Below are positions 1,156 to 57,855 of a stretch of DNA of 64,000 nt, in pieces. Both the position numbers and the translations under genes were made by a program. The DNA is from Octopus vulgaris (taxonomy: Eukaryota): contig OX597816.1 in assembly GCA_951406725.2 (NCBI GenBank), positions 35,092,001 to 35,156,000 of the forward strand, written 5' to 3'. The notes under the pieces were generated by a model, which saw only the letters and a list, made by a program, of their open reading frames with translations, was not told the DNA's origin and did no database searches. Every line of letters begins with the position of its first letter. The first letter of the stretch is position 1.

Positions 1156-1330
1156 GGAAGCTTTATGAACATAAACAAAAGACGAAGGCAGGTGGAATAC
1201 AAACAAACAATTGTATTAGTATAGCGCTCAGGAATATAAATAAAACAAGTCTTTTACGTTTCGAGCCTACGCTCTTCAACAGAAAGATACACAGAAACGA
1301 AACACAGAAAGAAACAAGGAGAGAAAAAAA
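1153..1330 (-). mobile_element. Solo terminal repeat (pLTR-like) of a Penelope-like element, inserted in (TA)n
   Basis: Similar to 4550-4720 and to 54086-54245, the 3' end of the GIY-YIG element; TA runs on both sides. Confidence 0.75.
1250..1287 (-). ncRNA. Minimal type I hammerhead-like motif, variant core CUGUUGA
   Basis: Minus strand reads UCUUU CUGUUGA A GAGC GUAG GCUC GAA ACGU A AAAGA. Stems I and II pair; stem III is the palindrome ACGU. Confidence 0.65.
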
Positions 1331-3105: not shown

Positions 3106-4549
3106 TGTTATCTTCTCATATCCTTTAAAAAGATTTTGCTCAGTCAAGATAATTGAAAAAATATGAATAAAAATCGGTTTGTTTAATTAATTTTGCTACA
3201 TTACTTTATCACAAAAGCAACCAGAGTGCAATCACTTTTCAATATAAACGTGTTACATGTTTCTTTGATTGGACGTGTTTCTCCACAAATAACATTTATT
3301 CATATAAATGAATACGTAATCTATATACGTATATAAATAGGTAAATACATGCATATTTACATGCTTACATACACACGTGACTTTTTCTCCGCGATGGGGA
3401 ACAAACGTTATGCACTTTTGTAGAGAGTTCAAAAGAAACTGAAGTGGATTCTCAAAGTCCTAGCTATTACTGACACAATGAAACATTCTAGAACATTCCA
3501 AAGTTTCTGTACCTGAGGTTGTTTAGGCGAACAGATAGATATACTTGGGGATATGCATCGACGTATCAGCCAACACGCTAACTCAACCACATAAATAAAA
3601 TTACTTACACATCAGCTTTTCCGTACTGAATGGCCTGAAAACACCTATACACTTTCGACATCTCCATCCAAATGAATTGATATTAACCGGCGTTCTTTTG
3701 TATTAATATGATCATGGGTTTTCTCCCCATTACATTATATTTATACTTGTGTTATGGCCTAATTTTGTATGCCATCTTTAACTGAATTCATTAGTCAGTC
3801 GTTATTTGGTTGATTAATATTAGATAGCTTAGTCTTAGGAGAATTCGTTTATGTCGTCTAAAATATTTACATTGCAGTTTTCGCAGTATTTAATTGTTAA
3901 CGTGGTGTTCCAATGAATAAAAAAGATTTGTTATCTACTCATTGCAACACAGTGATAATTAAAAAGGAAATCTATACTTCATAGCAACTTTACCTCCTAC
4001 CAAGAAGTTTATTCGTGGAAAAACACTTCTAATCAAATGAGAAGAGAACAGATTCACGAATGGTACTTGAAAATACTGAATGTACTTAGTATGCACTTCA
4101 AGAAGTAAACACAGCTATCAAACAAAACTTAAGTGCCATATTTAACACATTTATATTGCAAAGTAATAGTACTCTGCTTGCCTTTGCGATAAAATAATTT
4201 AGCAAATTAATCAAACAAACAGATTAAATTTGTTCGTCAAAATATTTCTATCTTACGTTGGCTGCAGTGTAAAGCGGTGTAATCATTTAAAAAATACATA
4301 TAAATAATCAAACTTTTGCAATGATAATCGGCATAAATTTGCGCCAAATATAAAAATTTCAAAGTGATTTTACTAATTGTTTTTAATTTGAACAAATTTT
4401 AATTTTAATTTAAAACTCGGACGTTTTCTGAAGTCATTAATTTTTTTAAAAAGTTTTCTACTAGAAATTCCTTCAATGGAGTAATTATATAACTAATGCA
4501 ATAAAAATTCAGATACATTATATGCGTAACGTATATATATATATATATA

Positions 4550-4813
4550 ACGGGAAGGTTTACGAAAATAAAAACAAAAGACAAAGGCAGGTGGAGCACA
4601 AACAAACAAATGTATTGGTATGGCGCTCAGGAATAGAAATAGAACAAGTCTTTTACGTTTCGAGCCTAAGCTCTTCGACAGAAAGATACACAGAAAAGAA
4701 ACAAGGAGAGAAAAAAATGCGTGTAGGCGCTATTATGCATATATATATAAAGTCTTTTGTTTATTTCCGTAAACCTGCCTTCGTCTTTTGTCTATTCTCA
4801 TAAAGCTTCCCGT
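4550..4813 (-). mobile_element. Penelope-like terminal repeat with a short inverted partial copy, in (TA)n
   Basis: 4550-4720 matches 1153-1330; about 4750-4813 is an inverted copy of its end. Confidence 0.7.
4649..4686 (-). ncRNA. Minimal type I hammerhead-like motif, variant core CUGUCGA
   Basis: Minus strand reads UCUUU CUGUCGA A GAGC UUAG GCUC GAA ACGU A AAAGA. Confidence 0.65.
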
Positions 4814-4815
4814 TA

Positions 4816-4847
<32 letters not shown>

Positions 4848-5684
4848 CACATACACATTCACACTCATGTTTTTGCGTTCAATTATGAAATGAGATGATG
4901 TAGGAACGCTGGAGTCCTTGAACAACATGGAAAATATTGCATTTCATTTTTTGGGACATATTAGCTCTAGAACATTCGCAGTTGCAGATAAACTAAACAT
5001 ATCAGGATTTTGGTCATATATTTCGTATTTCTCGGCCGTAATTCTACGAGTACACTTTCTATGCAAATTTAAGTTTATGGTTAATAAATCAGGACTAGCT
5101 GAAGTAACAAAAAAATCACGAAAGATTATGGACTGATGCATGCACGATATCTCTGACGGGTATATGTCATTGGCAGACCTAGTCGGGGGTGGCTTTCTAT
5201 AGTGATGCTAGTGAGAGTTATTCATTTTTAACGCAATATTTTCGATTTGAATATAACAAATGATGAAGACTACATTGCGGCGGTAATGAAAATATCCCCA
5301 TATTTTTCAGGTGATACAAACTATCAAGCCATTTCCCTATCACAATATATATGCGAGTATATACGTACGTGTGTGTGTGTTGTGTATTTCATCTGTATAT
5401 AATGATAATTCCATAAACACCATTAGTAAAATTTTACCTAAAATCTCCAGGAAGGTAAAGAGATAGAGAAAGAACATGCTGACTTCACTTCAGCTTAGAT
5501 ACTAAGATATCCGGAAGAAAGACTTGCTACAGATTTTGCTTGTCACTGTTTTCAGTTCATGAAAGAGCACCTGCAAAAATGAGATTGCCAGTTCCTCTAC
5601 CAGATGTATAAAGAATATTGCTCAGAAATAATGAGGATATGTATGTCTCTCAATGAACAACATATGAGGACAACATTGATAGAA

Positions 5685-5990
5685 TTCTTTTTATTGTGCA
5701 CCAATGTTCACTTTGCAAATGCATTGCTTTATACTGAAGTATTTCCCTTGGAACATTAGTAAAATATAATGGCAAAGAAAAAGTGAGGGAAAAGTTGAAG
5801 ATCATTTGAACGTTTTCAAAGAAGAAACACTTGGGCGTGTTTATGTTGTCACACCAAATGCAAGAGAACTGTATTACATAAGAATTTTATTGCATAAAGT
5901 CCGAAATAGTATTTTACCTTTTGCCCTCGTGCATCGGCATTTTCACTTTGGTGCGGTTGCGACCCAACATATCACGGTAGATAAATCTAG
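5685..5990 (+). mobile_element. Helitron Rep/helicase fragment with possible 3' CTAG end
   Basis: Translation LGRVYVVTPNARELYYIRILLHKVR matches the Helitron RepHel motif GRVYxVxP...YYLRxLLxxVRG; CTAG followed by T at 5987-5991. Confidence 0.75.
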
Positions 5991-7067
5991 TATATATACA
6001 AAAATATATACATATGTTTGTGTGTGTGTGTGTGTATGAGCTTGTGTGTTTTTATGTGTGTATGTTTGTGTATAATTAATTTTTGATGTTTATCATGTCC
6101 ATAAGTTTTCTAATGTAGTGACACTTTATGAGAGAATTGTTTATTGGTATATTCCTTCTTTGTACATCTAGTCACTTGAAAGTAGAATGTTCCATCATGT
6201 TTGAGCATAAACTACCCAAATTTGTCATGGGTGGTGGGAGGATGGAAATTTCTCCGTGGTGACATAATTTTAGTATCTAGCCACTGACTGAAATATTTAA
6301 TGGCATTCTTCGCAGCCTCTGTTACAAGGTTTTATCATATGAATTCAACTATGTTACATACTTGCGATAAAATGTTAAGAAATCTCTTAATACAAAATCC
6401 ACTACACACAAACAACTGTTCTCGATATCATGCCCTGTGATTATATTAACCGTGTCATTACCCTCACACTACCCACACGTTTTGACTTCTGTACAGTCCA
6501 CCTTCTTTTACCTATCTCCACATAACATTATCCTTACTATTCACACACTCATATAGGCAAAGAATCTTTTACTTAAGTCCATTGACCTTAAAGCGCATGA
6601 CCCTACTTGAAATGACTTTTTAAAACATATTATTATTTTCCCCTTTTTTGCAGTAAACTTCATACCGTTATTGTTTATGAGTAACATTACTTTCTATGTA
6701 CATAGTAGGCTTATTGTCATTGAGCCTACTAGATTTCAATGCTGTTAAGACAATTGAAATGAATTTTTAAAACATTTCAACATTTTTCACTTTTTTGTAA
6801 TTACTTACTTTATGTGTAACCCCTATACTTCATTCTCATTCACCCAAGTATATTAGGAATGTTGTTTAAACAATTTGTTTGAAAATATTGTAGTCTAGAC
6901 TTTCTATAGACTCACATTCCTCCGCGTCACCTGAAATATTACACGATAGACTTCTGTGTACAAAGATCACACAGAGCACGATATCTAATTACCTTACCCC
7001 TTTTGGTTTTATATTGCGTTGACCTAAAATTAGCAGTTTTTTTCTTCGGAATGAAAAAAAGAAAGTA

Positions 7068-7549
7068 CCGTAAATCCTCGAGTATAGTCCGCCCTAGTGT
7101 ATAATACGCAGGGGATTTTTAGGGGGCTGTACCTCTGAAAAAGTCTAAACCTTGTGTATAATACGCACCCCTTCTTTAACTTGAGTCAAGGAGTTCTATA
7201 TACCGTCCTTGCTTTGTAAAAATCTATACGGTAACATCCTTTATTATTATTGTACATATAACATGATGTAAGCATGTAGTATTTTTGTGCATTTTGTTTG
7301 CAGTTAAATAAAGAAATAACAGTAATAACGTTGAATAAGTGTTGCTAACTGCATGTTAAGCATGATTTAAGTTTGTTTCGCGCCCGACATCACAAAATGC
7401 GTCTGAATAAATATTGCCGGACTGCAAATAGAGACTCGGACATTGCTTAGAAAATAATTTTCATTCTTAACATCGTATATAGTATGCACTAGGGATTTTG
7501 ACCTTTAAATTGTGGGAAAAAAATGTGGATTATATTCGAGGATTTACGG
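7068..7549. mobile_element. Tc1/mariner-superfamily (Tc2/pogo-like) MITE, 482 bp
   Basis: About 25-bp TIRs CCGTAAATCCTCGAGTATAGTCCGC and GTGGATTATATTCGAGGATTTACGG, with TA target duplication on both sides; no coding capacity. Confidence 0.9.
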
Positions 7550-28070: not shown

Positions 28071-28463
28071 AATCATTATTCATGAACACAAATAAGTATT
28101 TTTCACAACTGGCTGTTCAGTGCATTAAGTTACTATCAATTCAATTTGTAAAAGACACTATCTTTAATAATTATGAGCCTGCAGATGGACAGGCCTTCTA
28201 AAGTTCGACACAATAAATAAATCTTTTAAGGTATATATCTTATTTCCTCCAGTGATTAGACTGTGACCATGCTGGGACAACTCCATGGATTTTTGGTCGA
28301 AAGACTTTAACCCAGTACCTATTTTTCAATTGCATGTGCTAAATGTCAGAGGGGGATAGGATAAACTACCTGCATGAACCTTTAAAAGCAGGTAGTAATG
28401 TTATTCTTACTACAAGTTTTCAAGTGTGCTGTTCGATTTAAACAGTTATTTTTCGAAGCTATA

Positions 28464-29385
28464 ATGGAAGTGACGAAGGAACATATGCATAATATCTTGC
28501 TTTATAAATTCAATAAAGGCAACAAAGCAATGGAAGGTGCGAATAATATTAATGCAGTACATGAGGATCGGACAATAAATGTAAACCAGTGTCAACGAAC
28601 GGTTCCAGAGATTCCGAGTCAGAATCTACAGTCGAGAAGACGAGCCTCATCTAGGAAAATGTGTAGAACTCAACAAGGACTTCCTGCAAAATCTTGTGGA
28701 ACAAAATTCCTGTTGACGAACTAGCAGTGAAGATTGGATTTTGTCACTAAACTATTCATCGACACTTACGTGCCATCGAAAAAGTCAACAAATTAGGTCA
28801 AAATGTTCCTCACAAATTTTCCAAGTCTAACCACGCGCAGAGTGTGAATATGTGATCTTCTTTGCTGTCACATCTCACGAAAGAACCATTTTTGAACCGA
28901 ATAGTGACTGGTGACGAGACAGGGGATCTCTATAAAAATGACAAGTGCCGAAGACAGTGGGTAGGGAAAGGAGAAACATCGGTAACGCAGACTAAATATG
29001 GTCTTCACCCACGTAAAATGTCATCTGTTTGGTGGAATATGAAAGGCTTAGTCCACTTTGAACTTTTAAACCCAAACCAAACATTGACAAAAGAGATCTT
29101 GTGCGAGCAGATTTAGCGACTTAAATCAATGCTAAAAGAGAAAAACGACCGTCTTTGGTTTAACGATGACAGGTGTTCTTCTATCAGGATAATGATCGGC
29201 CACATACAGGGGGTATGACATTCCAAAGGCTGGATCACTTTGAATGGGAAACGACGACCCACCCGCTGTATTCACTGGACATGACCCCATCTGATTACCA
29301 TTCATTCCGAAGTCTTTAAAATCATTTGTACGGAAAAATATGAATCCTGTAGATGAGGTCAGAACAGTACTGGGGGAATATATGG
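28464..29385 (+). pseudogene. Mariner (DD34D) transposase pseudogene
   Basis: Translation includes MEVTKEHMHNILLYKF, FLNRIVTGDE, HPRKM..VWWNMKG, QDNDRPH and HPLYSLDMTPSDYHSFRSL, with many frameshifts and stops. Confidence 0.92.
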
Positions 29386-40562: not shown

Positions 40563-41658
40563 AATAGGGGTAGATTATCCTGTTCAGTAGGACTCCCTTT
40601 GTCATTAATTACGAGGTATGGACTTGTACAAAGTTTGAATTCTTTCCAAAGGAATTTTTGTCCATTCTTCAGCTAAAATAGTCTCCGGGTCTTGTAGTGA
40701 CAATGGTGGAGGGTATCCTTACATTTTTTTCCAAAATGCACCATAAATGTTCAATAATATTGAGATCTGGAAAAGTGGTGGTCAGATAAGGTGTTCAACT
40801 TCACAAGAATGTTCTTCATGCCATTATGTAACAACTTTAGCTGTGTGAATTGGGGCATTATCATCCTGAAATATTGCGTTTCCCTCTTGAAACAGTTCCA
40901 TAACCATAGGATGAATTTGATCAGATAAAAACTTAAATAGTCTTGACTATTAATTCTTTCATAAATGGAAACTATTGGGCCGTCTCCACACGTATACTTG
41001 GCTGGTCGGAAATGAGGTAAAGTCTGACTCGTCCAAGAAAATAACATTTTTCCACTGCTCTAGGGGCCAATTCTGGAGGATCTTACTCCACTCTAATCCC
41101 TTTGCAGTATTTGTTTTTGAAGCCCCCAAATTTTCGGCTTCAGGCAGCTACAGGTGAACAGTTTTTGTGGAAACTGGGTTCTTTAGGTTGCTATTAAGTG
41201 CCATAGTAATTTTGGGAACTGTACTTTTGTGATCTCTTCTAACAATGCACGTATGAGTCCGACGGACATTATTCGAATATTTTGGATTTCTTCCGGAGTC
41301 TTGATTCAACGAGGAGGTTTTTCCTTCTTTCTCATAGTCTGTCATTACTTTTGAGACATAAATTCTTGATACACCAAACATTTCTGGTGTTTTCATAACG
41401 CTAATGCCTGCTATATAATCACTAGCAATTTCGCCTCTTTGAAAGTACAATAGATTTGTCATTTTAATGAATTTTAATTATCTTTTTCTGATGATATCTG
41501 AAAAGAAACAACAATTTTAGCAAAACATATTAAGCAACACTAATAATAAATAAAAAAAAATATACATGTAAATAAACAAGATTTTGATGGTTTTTATAGA
41601 TATTTCAAAATTATTATGCTATGATACTAAGTGTTTCCATTATTTTGTGCAAACCCTG
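40563..41658 (-). mobile_element. Tc1-like transposon (decayed), same family as 30643
   Basis: TIR CAGGGTTTGCACAAAATAATGGAAACAC next to TA; translations MTNLLYFQRGEI, SGRNPK, FQDDNAPIH and PDLNIIEHLW. Confidence 0.9.
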
Positions 41659-51039: not shown

Positions 51040-51676
51040 ACTTTACTAACTCAGTCAAGTATGTTTGCAAATATATAAACAAATGTTTCGATGCTGCAAC
51101 ATACATCTTATGCAGATTTGCAGTCATCTGATAAATAAAAATGACACAGATGCACAGTAAGACAGAGGAGAATACATTTGTACCAATGAGGGTTTTGGCG
51201 CATCATCAATTTTCCCCTTCGTGAGAGGCACCCAGTCATCATTCATCTGAGTCTCCATTTAGAGAATGACCACATGGCTATCTTTACAAAACAAACAACC
51301 TTGCAACAAGCACTTTCTTCAAAAGAATTTTCCCTTACAACCATTTTTAAGTTGCGTAATGTAGATGAAAATGTAAGAAAACTCCTTTGCCCACAATTGC
51401 CCAAGTATTACAACTGCAGAACAATAAACGACACAAGAACAAATGTGGGGCTGATGCTGTTGCAAGAGTGTACAGTGCATCACCACACACAATACCAAGC
51501 AGAATGCATCTACTTACGCCTCCTTTTGCATGAAGTACGCGGTCCCAAATCATTCCAAGATTCGAGGAAGATAGATTGGTCGTTTGTGTGAAACTTATAA
51601 GGAAGCATGCTGTCAACAAGGTTTTCTTTTAGAAAATGATGAACATTGGGATATTACATTGACTGAAGCATCAGTA
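51040..51676 (+). mobile_element. Helitron Rep/helicase fragment
   Basis: Translations ERHPVIIHLSLHLEN, AECIYLRLLLHEVRGPKSFQD and CETYKEAC...LLENDEHWDITLTEA. Confidence 0.88.
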
Positions 51677-51864: not shown

Positions 51865-51885
51865 AGCAACAACATCGAAAAATAC

Positions 51886-51930
51886 CTGATGAAGGCTGCA
51901 GGGTATATCAATCGAAACGTTGTGTTAACA
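51886..51930 (+). ncRNA. Degenerate hammerhead core
   Basis: Reads CUGAUGA A GGCUG CAGGGUAUAU CAAUC GAAAC GUUGUGUUA; stem II is partly broken and stem I is not evident. Confidence 0.5.
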
Positions 51931-54085: not shown

Positions 54086-54089
<4 letters not shown>

Positions 54090-55500
54090 GAGAGTTTACG
54101 AAAAAAACAAGAGTAAGAGAGGTGGTGTACAAAGCAAACAGATGTATTAGTATAACGCTCAGGAATAAAAAAAAGTATTTTACGTTTCGAGCCTACGCTC
54201 TTCTACAGAAAGGGACACAGAAAAAAACAAAGAGAGAAACAATTTATGTAGTGGCTAACGATCTATCATGGCGACTGCCGGACAGAAGGGTCACAAAGGA
54301 GAACGAAGAAGCAGGGGAGATAAAATAAAGATGCCTCCCCAACACGAAGGTGCGTGTGTGTATAAGGGAGTATGTATGTGCGAATGAAAGAGGGTTGGTG
54401 GTCTGGACGTGTGCGTAGGTGTAGGTGTGAAAATGTGGGGATGGGAATTAGTCAGTGCTGGTGTGTGGTTGGTGGGTTGTGATGTGATGTGTAATGTTGT
54501 ATGGTGTAGTGTGGTGTGGTGTGATGTTGTTTGGAGTTGGGTGAGGCGAGAGTGGAGAAAGCACGGGTGTGGTATGGGTCCAGCTGAGTGTTGGGGTATG
54601 GGGTAGGCAGAGGGTGGTGATAGAGGTGGGGTTTGTGGGTAGGCAGAGGGTGGTAGTAGAGGTGGGATATATGGGAGAGGGTGTAGGGGATAGGATGGGG
54701 GGATGGGAAGTATAGGGAAGGTGGAGTAGGAATGTGTATGGGTGCGTTGGGCTTATAGGGAAGGGTTGATTATGAAGGGGGAAGGGGAAGGTGGGTATGT
54801 CAGGAAAGAGAGTAAGAGAGAAGAGAGAAATATGGAAGAGAGAAAGCGAGTGAGAGAGAAGAGAGAAAGAGAGAAGAGAGAAAGAGAGTAAGAGAGAAGA
54901 GAGAAAGAGAGAAGAGAGAAAGCGAGTAAGAGAGAAGAGAGAGAGAGAAGTAGGAATGAAGAGAAGTAGGAGTGAAGATATGTAGGAGTCGGGCAAGAGA
55001 GGAGAGTTGGGTGGGAGGAAGTAGGAGGGGGGAGAGGCAGGGGGAGAAGGTTAGATGCATAGGGGAGGAGAGTTGAGCCCAAATGGCGTAAAGGAGCGAA
55101 GAGAGAATATTAATCTCTGTTCACGGCGCAAACGGGACTCACTATGGTCTCTGCAAGGACAATCTGAACACGGACGGGTGTTGTAAAGAGTGACCGGTAG
55201 ATCGGAAACGGCATGAGACCGGGGTGTTATTGCCGAGGCGGATGTCTCGGAGGTGTTCCGCGAACCGGTCAGCCAAGCGGTGTCCCGTTTGTCCGATGTA
55301 CAGAGAATGACAGAGAGAGAGAGAGCATGAGATGTAATATATGATATTGGTGGAGTGCAGGTGATGGAGTCGGTGATGCAATAGGGTCGATGCTGGGTGC
55401 CGGTGAGGAGACTGGTGTTGGAGAGGTAAGGGCAAGTGCGGCAGCGTGGGCGGGAGCAGGGGAACGAACCAGGCTGGGAGGTAGACACACACTGTGTGTG
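54086..55500 (-). mobile_element. 5'-truncated Penelope-like element (Neptune-like): zinc finger, GIY-YIG, 3' UTR and terminal repeat
   Basis: Translations FPCSRPRCRTCPY, NIIYYISCS..C..LYIGQTGHRLADRFAEH and RLRREQRLIFSLRSFTPFGLN, split by frameshifts; bounded by TA tracts. Confidence 0.92.
54176..54213 (-). ncRNA. Hammerhead-like motif, variant core CUGUAGA
   Basis: Minus strand reads UUU CUGUAGA A GAGC GUAG GCUC GAA ACGU A AAA; stem I is reduced to 3 bp. Confidence 0.55.
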
Positions 55501-55566: not shown

Positions 55567-55801
55567 AATGGTCCCTTTGCATACTGAATACTTGGTGAAA
55601 TTGATTAATTAATTAATTTTACCCTCAATTGTTGAAATTATAATTCATCTCTCTCTATTTAATGCTTCGGATTTTACCGAAAAAGCATAGTGTTTACTGA
55701 TTTTAACCCACGCTGGTGGAAAGGGGAGAGCAGAAATTCTTCGCTTGCATATTTTGGGTTTGCTGGCACTGTTAGTTTCGAGCAGATCTTCAGAAGCGAT
55801 A
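55567..55801. repeat. Partial copy of the 556-bp unit, between TA tracts
   Basis: Essentially identical to the reverse complement of ~56390-56625. Confidence 0.92.
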
Positions 55802-56017
55802 TATATATATGTCAAAAAATTGTGAAGCATGACTGTCAACACTACTACATGAACCCGAAGATTGCAGAATTCAATGCATGAAAGTACTAGTTCAATCAGA
55901 ATGAATATTTAACATTCTACTATTTCATTTTATTTTATTCAATTATAATATATTATCTTTATATCATTATAAGATTGTAAATAAAACGTGAAAATCAGAC
56001 AAGGTTGGAATTCTTTT

Positions 56018-56087
<70 letters not shown>

Positions 56088-56095
<8 letters not shown>

Positions 56096-57242
56096 AAAGG
56101 GCTTAGTAAAATAAATTACTTTGCCACATACTGAACTCATTAGAAATAGTACCCAAAAAAAAACTTTTTTTAAACTATTTCTAATACTTAAAGAAAATCT
56201 CTCTCATATAGTGTTTGCTCAATTCAACTCACGAAAGTATGGGGGTAAAGACATTAAAAAATCAAATGCAAAGGTTATTTGAGAACGTACGTTTCTAGAT
56301 TAGTCAACTCGACATTTCTATCATCAGCTTAGAACTCCTTGGTTTGGATTTGAAAACACTGAAAGTGGGAGCATACCCTTTCGGCTTCTTATCGCTTCTG
56401 AAGATCTGCTCGAAACTAACAGTGCCAGCAAACCCAAAATATGCAAGCGAAGAATTTCTGCTCTCCCCTTTCCACCAGCGTGGGTTAAAATCAGTAAACA
56501 CTATGCTTTTTCGGTAAAATCCGAAGCATTAAATAGAGAGAGATGAATTATAATTTCAACAATTGAGGGTAAAATTAATTAATTAATCAATTTCACCAAG
56601 TATTCAGTATGCAAAGGGACCATTTAAGGCGAATTCTTGGTGAAATTGATTAATTAATTAATTTTACCCTCAATTGTTGAAATTATAATTCATCTCTCTC
56701 TATTTAATGCTTCGGATTTTACCGAAAAAGCATAGTGTTTACTGATTTTAACCCACGCTGGTGGAAAGGGGAGAGCAGAAATTCTTCGCTTGCATATTTT
56801 GGGTTTGCTGGCACTGTTAGTTTCGAGCAGATCTTCAGAAGCGATAAGAAGCCGAAAGGGTATGCTCCCACTTTCAGTGTTTTCAAATCCAAACCAAGGA
56901 GTTCTGAGCTGTGATAGAAATGTCGAGTTGACTAATCTAGAAACGTACGTTCTCAAATAACCTTTGCATTTGATTTTTTAATGTCTTTACCCCCATACTT
57001 TCGTGAGTTGAATTGAGCAAACACTATATGAGAGAGATTTTCTTTAAGTATTAGAAATAGTTTTAAAAAGGTTTTTTTGGCTACTATTTCTAATGAGTTC
57101 AGTATGTGGCAAAGTAATTTATTTTACTAAGCCCTTTTATATAATGTAATAATTTGAATTCGCCTTAAATGGTCCCTTTGCTTACTGAATACTTGGTGAA
57201 ATTGATTAATTAATTAATTTTACCCTCAATTGTTGAAATTAT
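56088..57242. repeat. Inverted plus partial tandem copies of a 556-bp unit
   Basis: Arms 56088-56600 and 56636-57145 are reverse complements with a 35-bp spacer; CTTGGTGAAATTGATT recurs at 56636 and 57192. Confidence 0.95.
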
Positions 57243-57855
57243 ATATATATATATATATCGTCACTGAAGTATTTCATATGTGATACTTACTTGTAACATG
57301 GAACTACTGGTGATATGGAAGCCAGCACAACCGCTTGTTTGGTCGAATTCAGTGACCAAACCACCACAACCCAGGCTTACCTGCGAGGATGTTTGGTGGG
57401 GACCCAGAAGGACTAATACAAAGGCCTATAAAAAATATCATTGAACCTACTGTAGGTTCTACGTCTCGCTAGCAATAACACGGGGCCCCAGAAAATAACG
57501 TTTGGTGTCCGTTGGGCTGGAGGGCCACTGGTTGTAGGGTGTACTTCAGCGTTGGTTAAAGAATATAGCTTGTAAAGACCACTCTTTTCTCGAAGACGTC
57601 TGTAGATTGGAGAGGTTGTCTCAGGTGCTATGCAAGTCTTTTTAGGCCCAACATTTTGGATTGCACAATCGCTGGCAAAGCGACTTTACGATGCCCAGTT
57701 GAGTAGGGGAGCATCGTAATAAACACAGAAGCAGCTGAGGGTAATGTGGGTGAATCCGATAAAGGGTAAAGCAACCTCATGCTCGGGCATTACGGTATTT
57801 CGCACACGCTATATTCACACACGTATATGTGTACACATATGCGAAAGTGAATGTT

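Follow-up and report, generated by a model that had tools for sequence, protein, structure and literature searches.

The window, i.e. the whole stretch of 64,000 nucleotides of Octopus vulgaris DNA that was analysed, carries three copies of a motif with the layout of a minimal hammerhead ribozyme, in which position 6 of the core is U. This raises the question of whether the motif belongs to a hammerhead family that has replaced A6 as a whole, and whether an RNA with such a core would still cleave itself.

Structure of the U6 motif

The three copies (Table 1), which all lie on the minus strand (the first-pass annotation gave no strand), share the pattern CUGUNGA-A-GAGC-loop-GCUC-GAAACGUA. Copy 2 reads, 5′ to 3′ from 4686 to 4649, UCUUU CUGUCGA A GAGC UUAG GCUC GAAA CGU A AAAGA. 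The features described in the first-pass annotation were recovered on re-reading: U is present at position 6 in 3/3 copies, N7 is U, C and A, respectively, and stem II GAGC/GCUC, GAAA and ACGUA are identical in 3/3 copies. Copies 1 and 3 differ from copy 2 at N7 and at the first base of loop II, and copy 3 has two further changes, both in stem I, which comprises only 3 bp in this copy. One additional A, which that annotation had not mentioned, is located between A9 and G10.1; an inserted base at 9/10.1 is a known trait of the hammerheads of Penelope-like elements (PLEs) (PMC4209133, available text).

Each copy is part of a repeat of 165-180 nt, with 80-88% identity between copies, that ends at a (TA)n array. 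The three copies each stand alone in the window, in no tandem arrangement, and every one of them is 5′-truncated. Located 3′ of the ribozyme on the minus strand, the block CCUGAGCG (4624-4633 and equivalents) is identical in all three copies and is partly retained in loose contig ends with diverged flanks. An alternative fold might arise if the GAGC of this block paired with GCUC of stem II.

Table 1. Features of the U6 hammerhead copies and of the associated Penelope-like element, in window positions
Feature	Position	Strand	Basis or remark
U6 minimal type I hammerhead, copy 2 (putative)	4649..4686	-	sequence, alignment, folding, covariance model
Copy 2, stem I	4686-4682/4653-4649	-	
Copy 2, core	C3 4681, U4, G5, U6 4678, N7 4677, G8, A9 4675	-	
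Copy 2, inserted A	4674	-	
Copy 2, stem II	4673-4670/4665-4662	-	
Copy 2, loop II	4669-4666	-	
Copy 2, G12, A13, A14	G12 4661	-	
Copy 2, palindrome ACGU	4658-4655	-	
Copy 2, A17	4654	-	
Position 6 = U (canonical hammerheads: A)	4678..4678	-	contigs of four runs
Predicted cleavage site, 3′ of A17 in GUA	4653..4654	-	inferred from hammerhead rules
U6 hammerhead copy 1, N7 = U	1250..1287	-	in solo pLTR ~1152-1331, (TA)n on its flanks
U6 hammerhead copy 3, N7 = A, 3-bp stem I	54176..54213	-	in pLTR ~54088-54245
pLTR / 3′ end of 5′-truncated Penelope-like copy (copy 2)	4552..4716	-	between (TA)n arrays; 80-88% identity to the other two copies
Inverted partial pLTR-end copy beside copy 2, without hammerhead	4756..4822	+	blastn, sequence
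5′-truncated, frameshifted C-terminal GIY-YIG endonuclease, CX2-5CxxC linker (Neptune/Nematis type)	55052..55490	-	begins at (TA)n array
C-rich low-complexity stretch from endonuclease stop to pLTR, putative 3′ UTR	54246..55051	-	no (TA)n junction inside

Assignment to minimal hammerheads

A minimal-hammerhead descriptor with position 6 left free gave five matches in the window, namely the three U6 copies and two A6 motifs, compared with a mean of 0.07 in 100 shuffles, so that the motif is not a product of chance. In a covariance model based on 24 hammerheads from a related A6 family, the U6 copies rank first to third among 12 matches, with E values of 5.7e-05, 0.0063 and 0.013 on a rough calibration. 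The bases C3, U4, G5, G8, A9, G12, A13, A14, A15.1-U16.1 and H17 are present in 3/3 copies, and the only variation of at least 2% that contigs show at these core bases is G8A (2.4%, in one of four runs). The A6 relative aligns to the U6 copies without gaps, one stem II pair being changed from G-U in the relative to A-U here; no compensatory pair change was found within the U6 family.

Stems I and II enclose the core, with the pair G10.1-C11.1 present. Folding of the three copies gave a pairing probability of 0.98-1.0 for stem II, and of 0.73, 0.74 and 0.02 for stem I in copies 1, 2 and 3, respectively. The letters UNGAAGA, which occur in every copy, could also be read in a shifted register, as an A6 core two bases downstream (U3-N4-G5-A6-A7-G8-A9) with a stem II of 2 bp. 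Such a register requires a U3-G8 mismatch, a free position 4 and an insert of 2 nt before G12, loses the strongly predicted 4-bp stem II, and is at odds with the gap-free alignment of the A6 relative in the first register; we consider it barely credible.

Among the traits of PLE minimal hammerheads, the inserted base at 9/10.1, the palindromic 15.2-16.2 and the lack of a loop III are all found in the U6 motif, and copy 3 shows the location in a pLTR, as it follows a GIY-YIG fragment on the 3′ side and no (TA)n break separates the two. Assignment to a non-LTR retrozyme was rejected, as the copies are dispersed and minimal, instead of canonical type I hammerheads in short head-to-tail repeats. 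The search against Rfam gave no hammerhead at E up to 5 in the whole window or up to 10 in 4600-4730, and the Rfam matches in the window are microsatellite artefacts only. Rfam also missed the A6 minimal motifs of the window, which makes this test weak for the minimal subtype.

The U6 motif misses strict hammerhead membership on A6, with U in 3/3 copies and in more than 98% by depth in four runs, and fits every other testable feature of PLE minimal hammerheads. Judged by its sequence, it is a putative type I hammerhead of the minimal, dimer-type form, located in the pLTR of a Neptune-like Penelope element.

The Penelope-like element

The link to Penelope elements that had been proposed for the motif is supported by a GIY-YIG element upstream of copy 3, which has homologues with RT and GIY-YIG. 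Copy 3 is also the copy at the 3′ end of a GIY-YIG element, with the endonuclease stop 844 nt upstream of its C3. The element ends 121 nt past this C3, at a (TA)n array, and (TA)n bounds the unit on both sides. The physical link between pLTR and endonuclease is that of one window copy; one of the three copies retains coding sequence, and RT is absent from the window element copy.

The linker of the window endonuclease is CSRPRCRTC (CxxxxCxxC), and linkers of the type CX2-5CxxC mark Neptune/Nematis elements (PMC8557442, available text). When proteins were searched by word index with the endonuclease frame of 71 aa, no relative was found among 14 candidates, and Pfam gave no match to the broken endonuclease fragment. 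With phmmer, 898 endonuclease relatives were found at E up to 0.001. Pfam analysis of seven relatives detected RVT_1 followed by GIY-YIG in three, GIY-YIG only in one, and no match in three short ones. The linker and the RT-GIY-YIG homologues agree with the Neptune/Nematis clade. An endonuclease identity of 40-58% to elements with the A. digitifera-type Neptune hammerhead lends indirect support to a Neptune placement, and the element is provisionally described as Neptune-like.

Other hammerhead-like motifs and repeats in the window

The other hammerhead-like motifs of the window (1035, 2675, 51886 and 56327) all have A6. The motif at 2633-2679 on the minus strand (C3 at 2675) is canonical and hammerhead-like, with a 4-bp stem I, a 5-bp stem II, a palindromic AAUU loop III and a GUA site; it is located near (TA)n and probably represents another Penelope family. 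Also on the minus strand, at ~1000-1038 (position 3 at 1035), a U3-A8 minimal hammerhead-like motif was found, with UUGAAAA, a 5-bp stem II and an AAUU palindrome. This variant is known from Schistosoma elements; the stretch is AT-rich and a chance match is possible. On the plus strand, 51881-51927 contains a minimal hammerhead with canonical CUGAUGA, an inserted A, an imperfect stem II and an ACGU palindrome, which directly follows an (ATG)n/(AAT)n microsatellite and is the fourth match of the covariance model (E 0.12).

Tandem and inverted copies of another repeat are present at 55574-57260, including a near-perfect inverted repeat of 325 nt (56456-56780) and a hammerhead-like motif with a GUAC palindromic loop (C3 at 56327, minus strand), of which a second copy near 56909 (plus strand) lacks one core A. 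The arrangement resembles pLTRs in inverted orientation, from yet another Penelope family. Broken remnants of DNA transposons were found at 28386-28724 (+), 41148-41477 (-) and 51190-51591 (+). The first encodes a Mos1-type HTH (Pfam HTH_48, E 1.2e-07), and the second has a weak HTH match. The frame at 51190-51591, for which Pfam gave no match, presumably resembles a Helitron.

Position 6 across the family

Public sequencing data were used to follow position 6 beyond the window copies. Twenty-four runs matched window positions 3400-7400, twelve of them containing this part wholly or partly, and four of these were used: X4 (organism A), X7 (organism C), X8 (organism D) and X15 (organism A; RNA only by guess). 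Contig records were placed on 4575-4720 at 80% likeness with a reporting floor of 2%, resulting in 10,157 (X4), 5,049 (X7), 3,261 (X8) and 1,804 (X15) placed records; these counts are contigs weighted by word depth, not element copies, and an A6 subfamily below 2% would stay invisible in them.

At position 4678 no alternative base reached 2% by depth in any of the four runs, and U6 is therefore the family consensus. The contigs thus back the reading of A6U as a family-level trait, and a genome-wide A6 consensus, which had been named as the finding that would speak against it, was not seen in the four runs. N7 is shared among C (29-44%), U (32-50%), A (15-17%) and G (4.7-8.8%) over the four runs, the first loop II base occurs as three letters (G 84-95%, A 5-14%), and G8 is altered in 0.2-2.4%. 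The allele shares are near-identical across the three organism labels, which indicates closely related organisms rather than independent lineages. As the RNA nature of X15 is guessed only, its records are no evidence of transcription; no joints are shown in them. The exact U6 pattern had 0 matches in viral, metagenome and prokaryote genome contigs, collections that are poor in animal DNA and uninformative on its range.

Related A6 family

Scanning of metagenomes with both position 6 and position 7 left free gave at least 121 loci. Among the 132 matches listed, 131 have A6 and one has U6, and almost all belong to one family, which corresponds to the Neptune entry for Acropora digitifera in Fig. 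S3 (PMC4209133, available part). Since the scan pattern was modelled on the window motif, the scan shows that a relative exists, not how frequent U6 is. At least seven loci of the related family match the window endonuclease with 40-58% identity in the GIY-YIG frame, and in five of those seven the endonuclease precedes the hammerhead and shares its strand. Most simply, U6 would be a derived state of the window family. For monomers of the A6 relatives, folding predicts pairing between the core box and the cleavage-site strand (109 of 126 among the matches listed), a possible off-state latch.

Possible constraint on the motif

Fifteen alternative alleles were counted (16 rows, one being left out as private to the reference copy). 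Five out of the fifteen correspond to the five sites that are free in hammerheads (p 1e-4 to 6e-4, binomial, equal site rates), and three to N7 (p 1e-4 to 4e-4). At the C7-G8 CpG, U7 is commoner than A8 by 13-202 times, from which it follows that U7 spread through source elements, whereas A8 did not. The depth of the core is 2.2-4.1 times that of the best 3′ flank bin, even though it dips mid-stretch. Loose ends of diverged flanks cluster before 4646 and behind 4684-4685, adjoining the ends of stem I. This suggests that a subfamily with diverged flanks shares the hammerhead block, its position-6 base being not separable in these data.

The window copies differ at 0/23 constrained sites compared with 13-18% in the flanks (Fisher p 0.057, 0.019 and 0.035, the pairs being non-independent). 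In the contigs, 1/23 core sites are polymorphic compared with 6/83 in the flanks (Fisher p 1.0; binomial p 0.11-0.29), and at most positions of the 146-nt stretch, in the flanks as well, no variant reaches 2%. Core polymorphism is therefore not below that of the flanks in the contigs, and the invariance of U6 alone could be due to common descent. This is what would be expected of a dead ribozyme carried as a neutral passenger, whose founder had a disabling A6U and amplified recently, so that U6 is shared by descent. Such a passenger leaves unexplained the share of alternative alleles at N7, the asymmetry between U7 and A8, the depth peak bounded by stem I, and the agreement at all 23 constrained positions of copies that are 20% apart, and we regard it as unlikely. 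The free N7 together with the kept G8 leans towards a maintained hammerhead fold over a neutral relic, although the contigs show no significantly stronger conservation of the core than of the flanks.

U6 might also be imposed by an overlapping signal, either the pyrimidine tract of a splice acceptor that extends into the core or a short reading frame with N7 as the wobble base of Val. A long pyrimidine tract precedes the motif, and in D. virilis the end of the Penelope intron overlaps helix I (PMC4209133, available text); the frame VEE(R/L)RLET-stop is present in 3/3 copies, with N7 as third codon base. Nevertheless, the T runs vary in length, the frame has no start codon in the translated stretch and is preceded by a stop in copy 3, and a non-synonymous loop change occurs in 5-14%. 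An overlap of either kind is considered very improbable.

Proposed mechanism

The prediction of an attenuated self-cleaving RNA that depends on a dimer or on a protein is given an even chance here, and it is based on the slow cleavage of position-6 mutants in published work. The founder of the family would have changed A6 to U, with amplification afterwards, and subfamilies would then have varied N7 and loop II, not the catalytic G8 and G12. In tandem transcripts, the two ACGU palindromes would pair and form stem III, and the RNA would be cut after GUA slowly, and only as a dimer or with the protein of the element. For the monomer, folding predicts an off-state hairpin in which U6 and A15.1 are paired. 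Weak cleavage may suffice, because the full-length RNA would be the template for reverse transcription.

In the available parts of the literature, minimal PLE hammerheads are described as lacking loop III and forming stem III from two palindromes in a tandem transcript, and those with A6 are already slow in vitro (PMC4209133). The natural A6C hammerhead, known from one phage (PMC3088659, PMC7151607), has a kobs below 0.1 per min (PMC3088659), with 0.004 per min in 1 mM Mg2+ and 0.31 per min in 1 mM Mn2+, and A6C put into another, fast ribozyme gave 3.55e-6 per min in 0.3 mM Mg2+ (PMC7151607). In a deep scan, every single mutant of the CUGA region was low in activity (PMC9901934). A PLE hammerhead from Anolis cleaved only in the presence of the protein of its element; insertion in vitro did not require this cleavage, and RNA ends at the site were not seen (PMC11167929).

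Folding of the three monomers gave pairing probabilities of 0.98, 0.42 and 0.61 for U6-A15.1, a pair worth 0.4-2.4 kcal/mol. Considering secondary structure only, the modelled active dimer is less stable than the predicted minimum-energy dimer by 11-13 kcal/mol. The idea that U6 is the unique maker of the off-state hairpin is weakened, as position 6 is also predicted to be paired in 109 of the 126 A6 relatives folded as monomers among the matches listed. More tentatively than the attenuated reading, U6 may be a selected working core with a built-in brake, so that cutting would require either dimerisation of the RNA on the protein of the element or Mn2+.

The same monomer pairing is compatible with a loss of catalysis, in which the fold would be kept as a non-cleaving RNA element, e.g. 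as a binding or folding signal for the RT-endonuclease protein. The Anolis element, with insertion that needs no cleavage and no ends at the site, fits such a role, as do Naiad elements, which amplify without canonical hammerheads (PMC8557442, available text). However, a free N7 and the retention of G8, A9, G12-A14 and a non-G at position 17 follow the rules of a catalytic core, and the off-state pairing is not specific to U6, given its frequency among the A6 relatives; a purely non-cleaving element is rather doubtful.

Comparison with known systems

The closest described hammerheads are the minimal hammerheads of PLEs, above all the A. digitifera Neptune entry (Cervera and De la Pena 2014, PMC4209133, available part), which have A6 where the window family has U6. 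A6 is present in 56/56 motifs of Fig. S3 of that source, but the descriptor used there required A6. The U6 copies further differ from the A. digitifera Neptune entry by A17 instead of C17 and by A10.2-U11.2 instead of G-U. N7 is four-way variable in the window family, in contrast to C in 127/132 relatives among the matches listed, and the endonuclease is located ~840 nt upstream, compared with within a few hundred in the A. digitifera-type system.

Similar to the U6 family, the C6 hammerhead of Bcep176 (Perreault 2011, PMC3088659; Naghdi 2020, PMC7151607) is a natural replacement of A6 with the remaining core kept. It is a single phage motif with measured low, Mn2+-favoured activity, whereas U6 is a sequence trait of a putative dimer-type minimal motif, across a high-copy animal retroelement family. 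The U3-A8 minimal hammerheads of Schistosoma Cercyon (PMC4209133, available text) are likewise a family-wide core variant in PLEs; U3-A8 is a compensated pair, while U6 has no visible compensating core change. The Poseidon PAc hammerhead of Anolis (Frangieh et al. 2024, PMC11167929) is also a PLE pLTR hammerhead and serves as a model for protein-assisted, dispensable cleavage. It belongs to another PLE clade, its ORF starts inside the ribozyme, and no change at position 6 is described in the available part of that paper.

No natural A6U hammerhead was found in the literature searched, and Lunse et al. 2017, on PLE variants, may already describe such cores. The string CUGUNGA had no occurrence in the hammerhead literature searched by text, figure-only data being beyond the reach of this search. 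No natural A6U is reported in the available portions of PMC11014351, PMC6765202, PMC7229834, PMC6155905, PMC6961537, PMC12192606, bioRxiv 10.64898/2026.07.22.740005 and the supplement of PMC3088659.

Implications for Penelope-like elements

The U6 variant is genuine and extends over the whole family; both the ribozyme whose core it alters and the type of element that carries it are known. PLEs retain hammerheads even though cleavage is slow and was not required for insertion in vitro, and some clades lack the motif. The family described here is represented by thousands of distinct contig records despite a change in the core that, in other hammerheads, lowers the rate by orders of magnitude. 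By keeping G8 and G12 and letting N7 drift, it constitutes a natural test of the need of PLEs for self-cleavage. If U6 does not cut, the fold would be retained for something besides catalysis. If U6 cuts, it would be a large natural exception to the A6 rule, and searches based on CUGA would undercount ribozymes; and if U6 is a selected working core, a whole class of high-copy ribozymes in animals would have escaped descriptors with a fixed CUGA.
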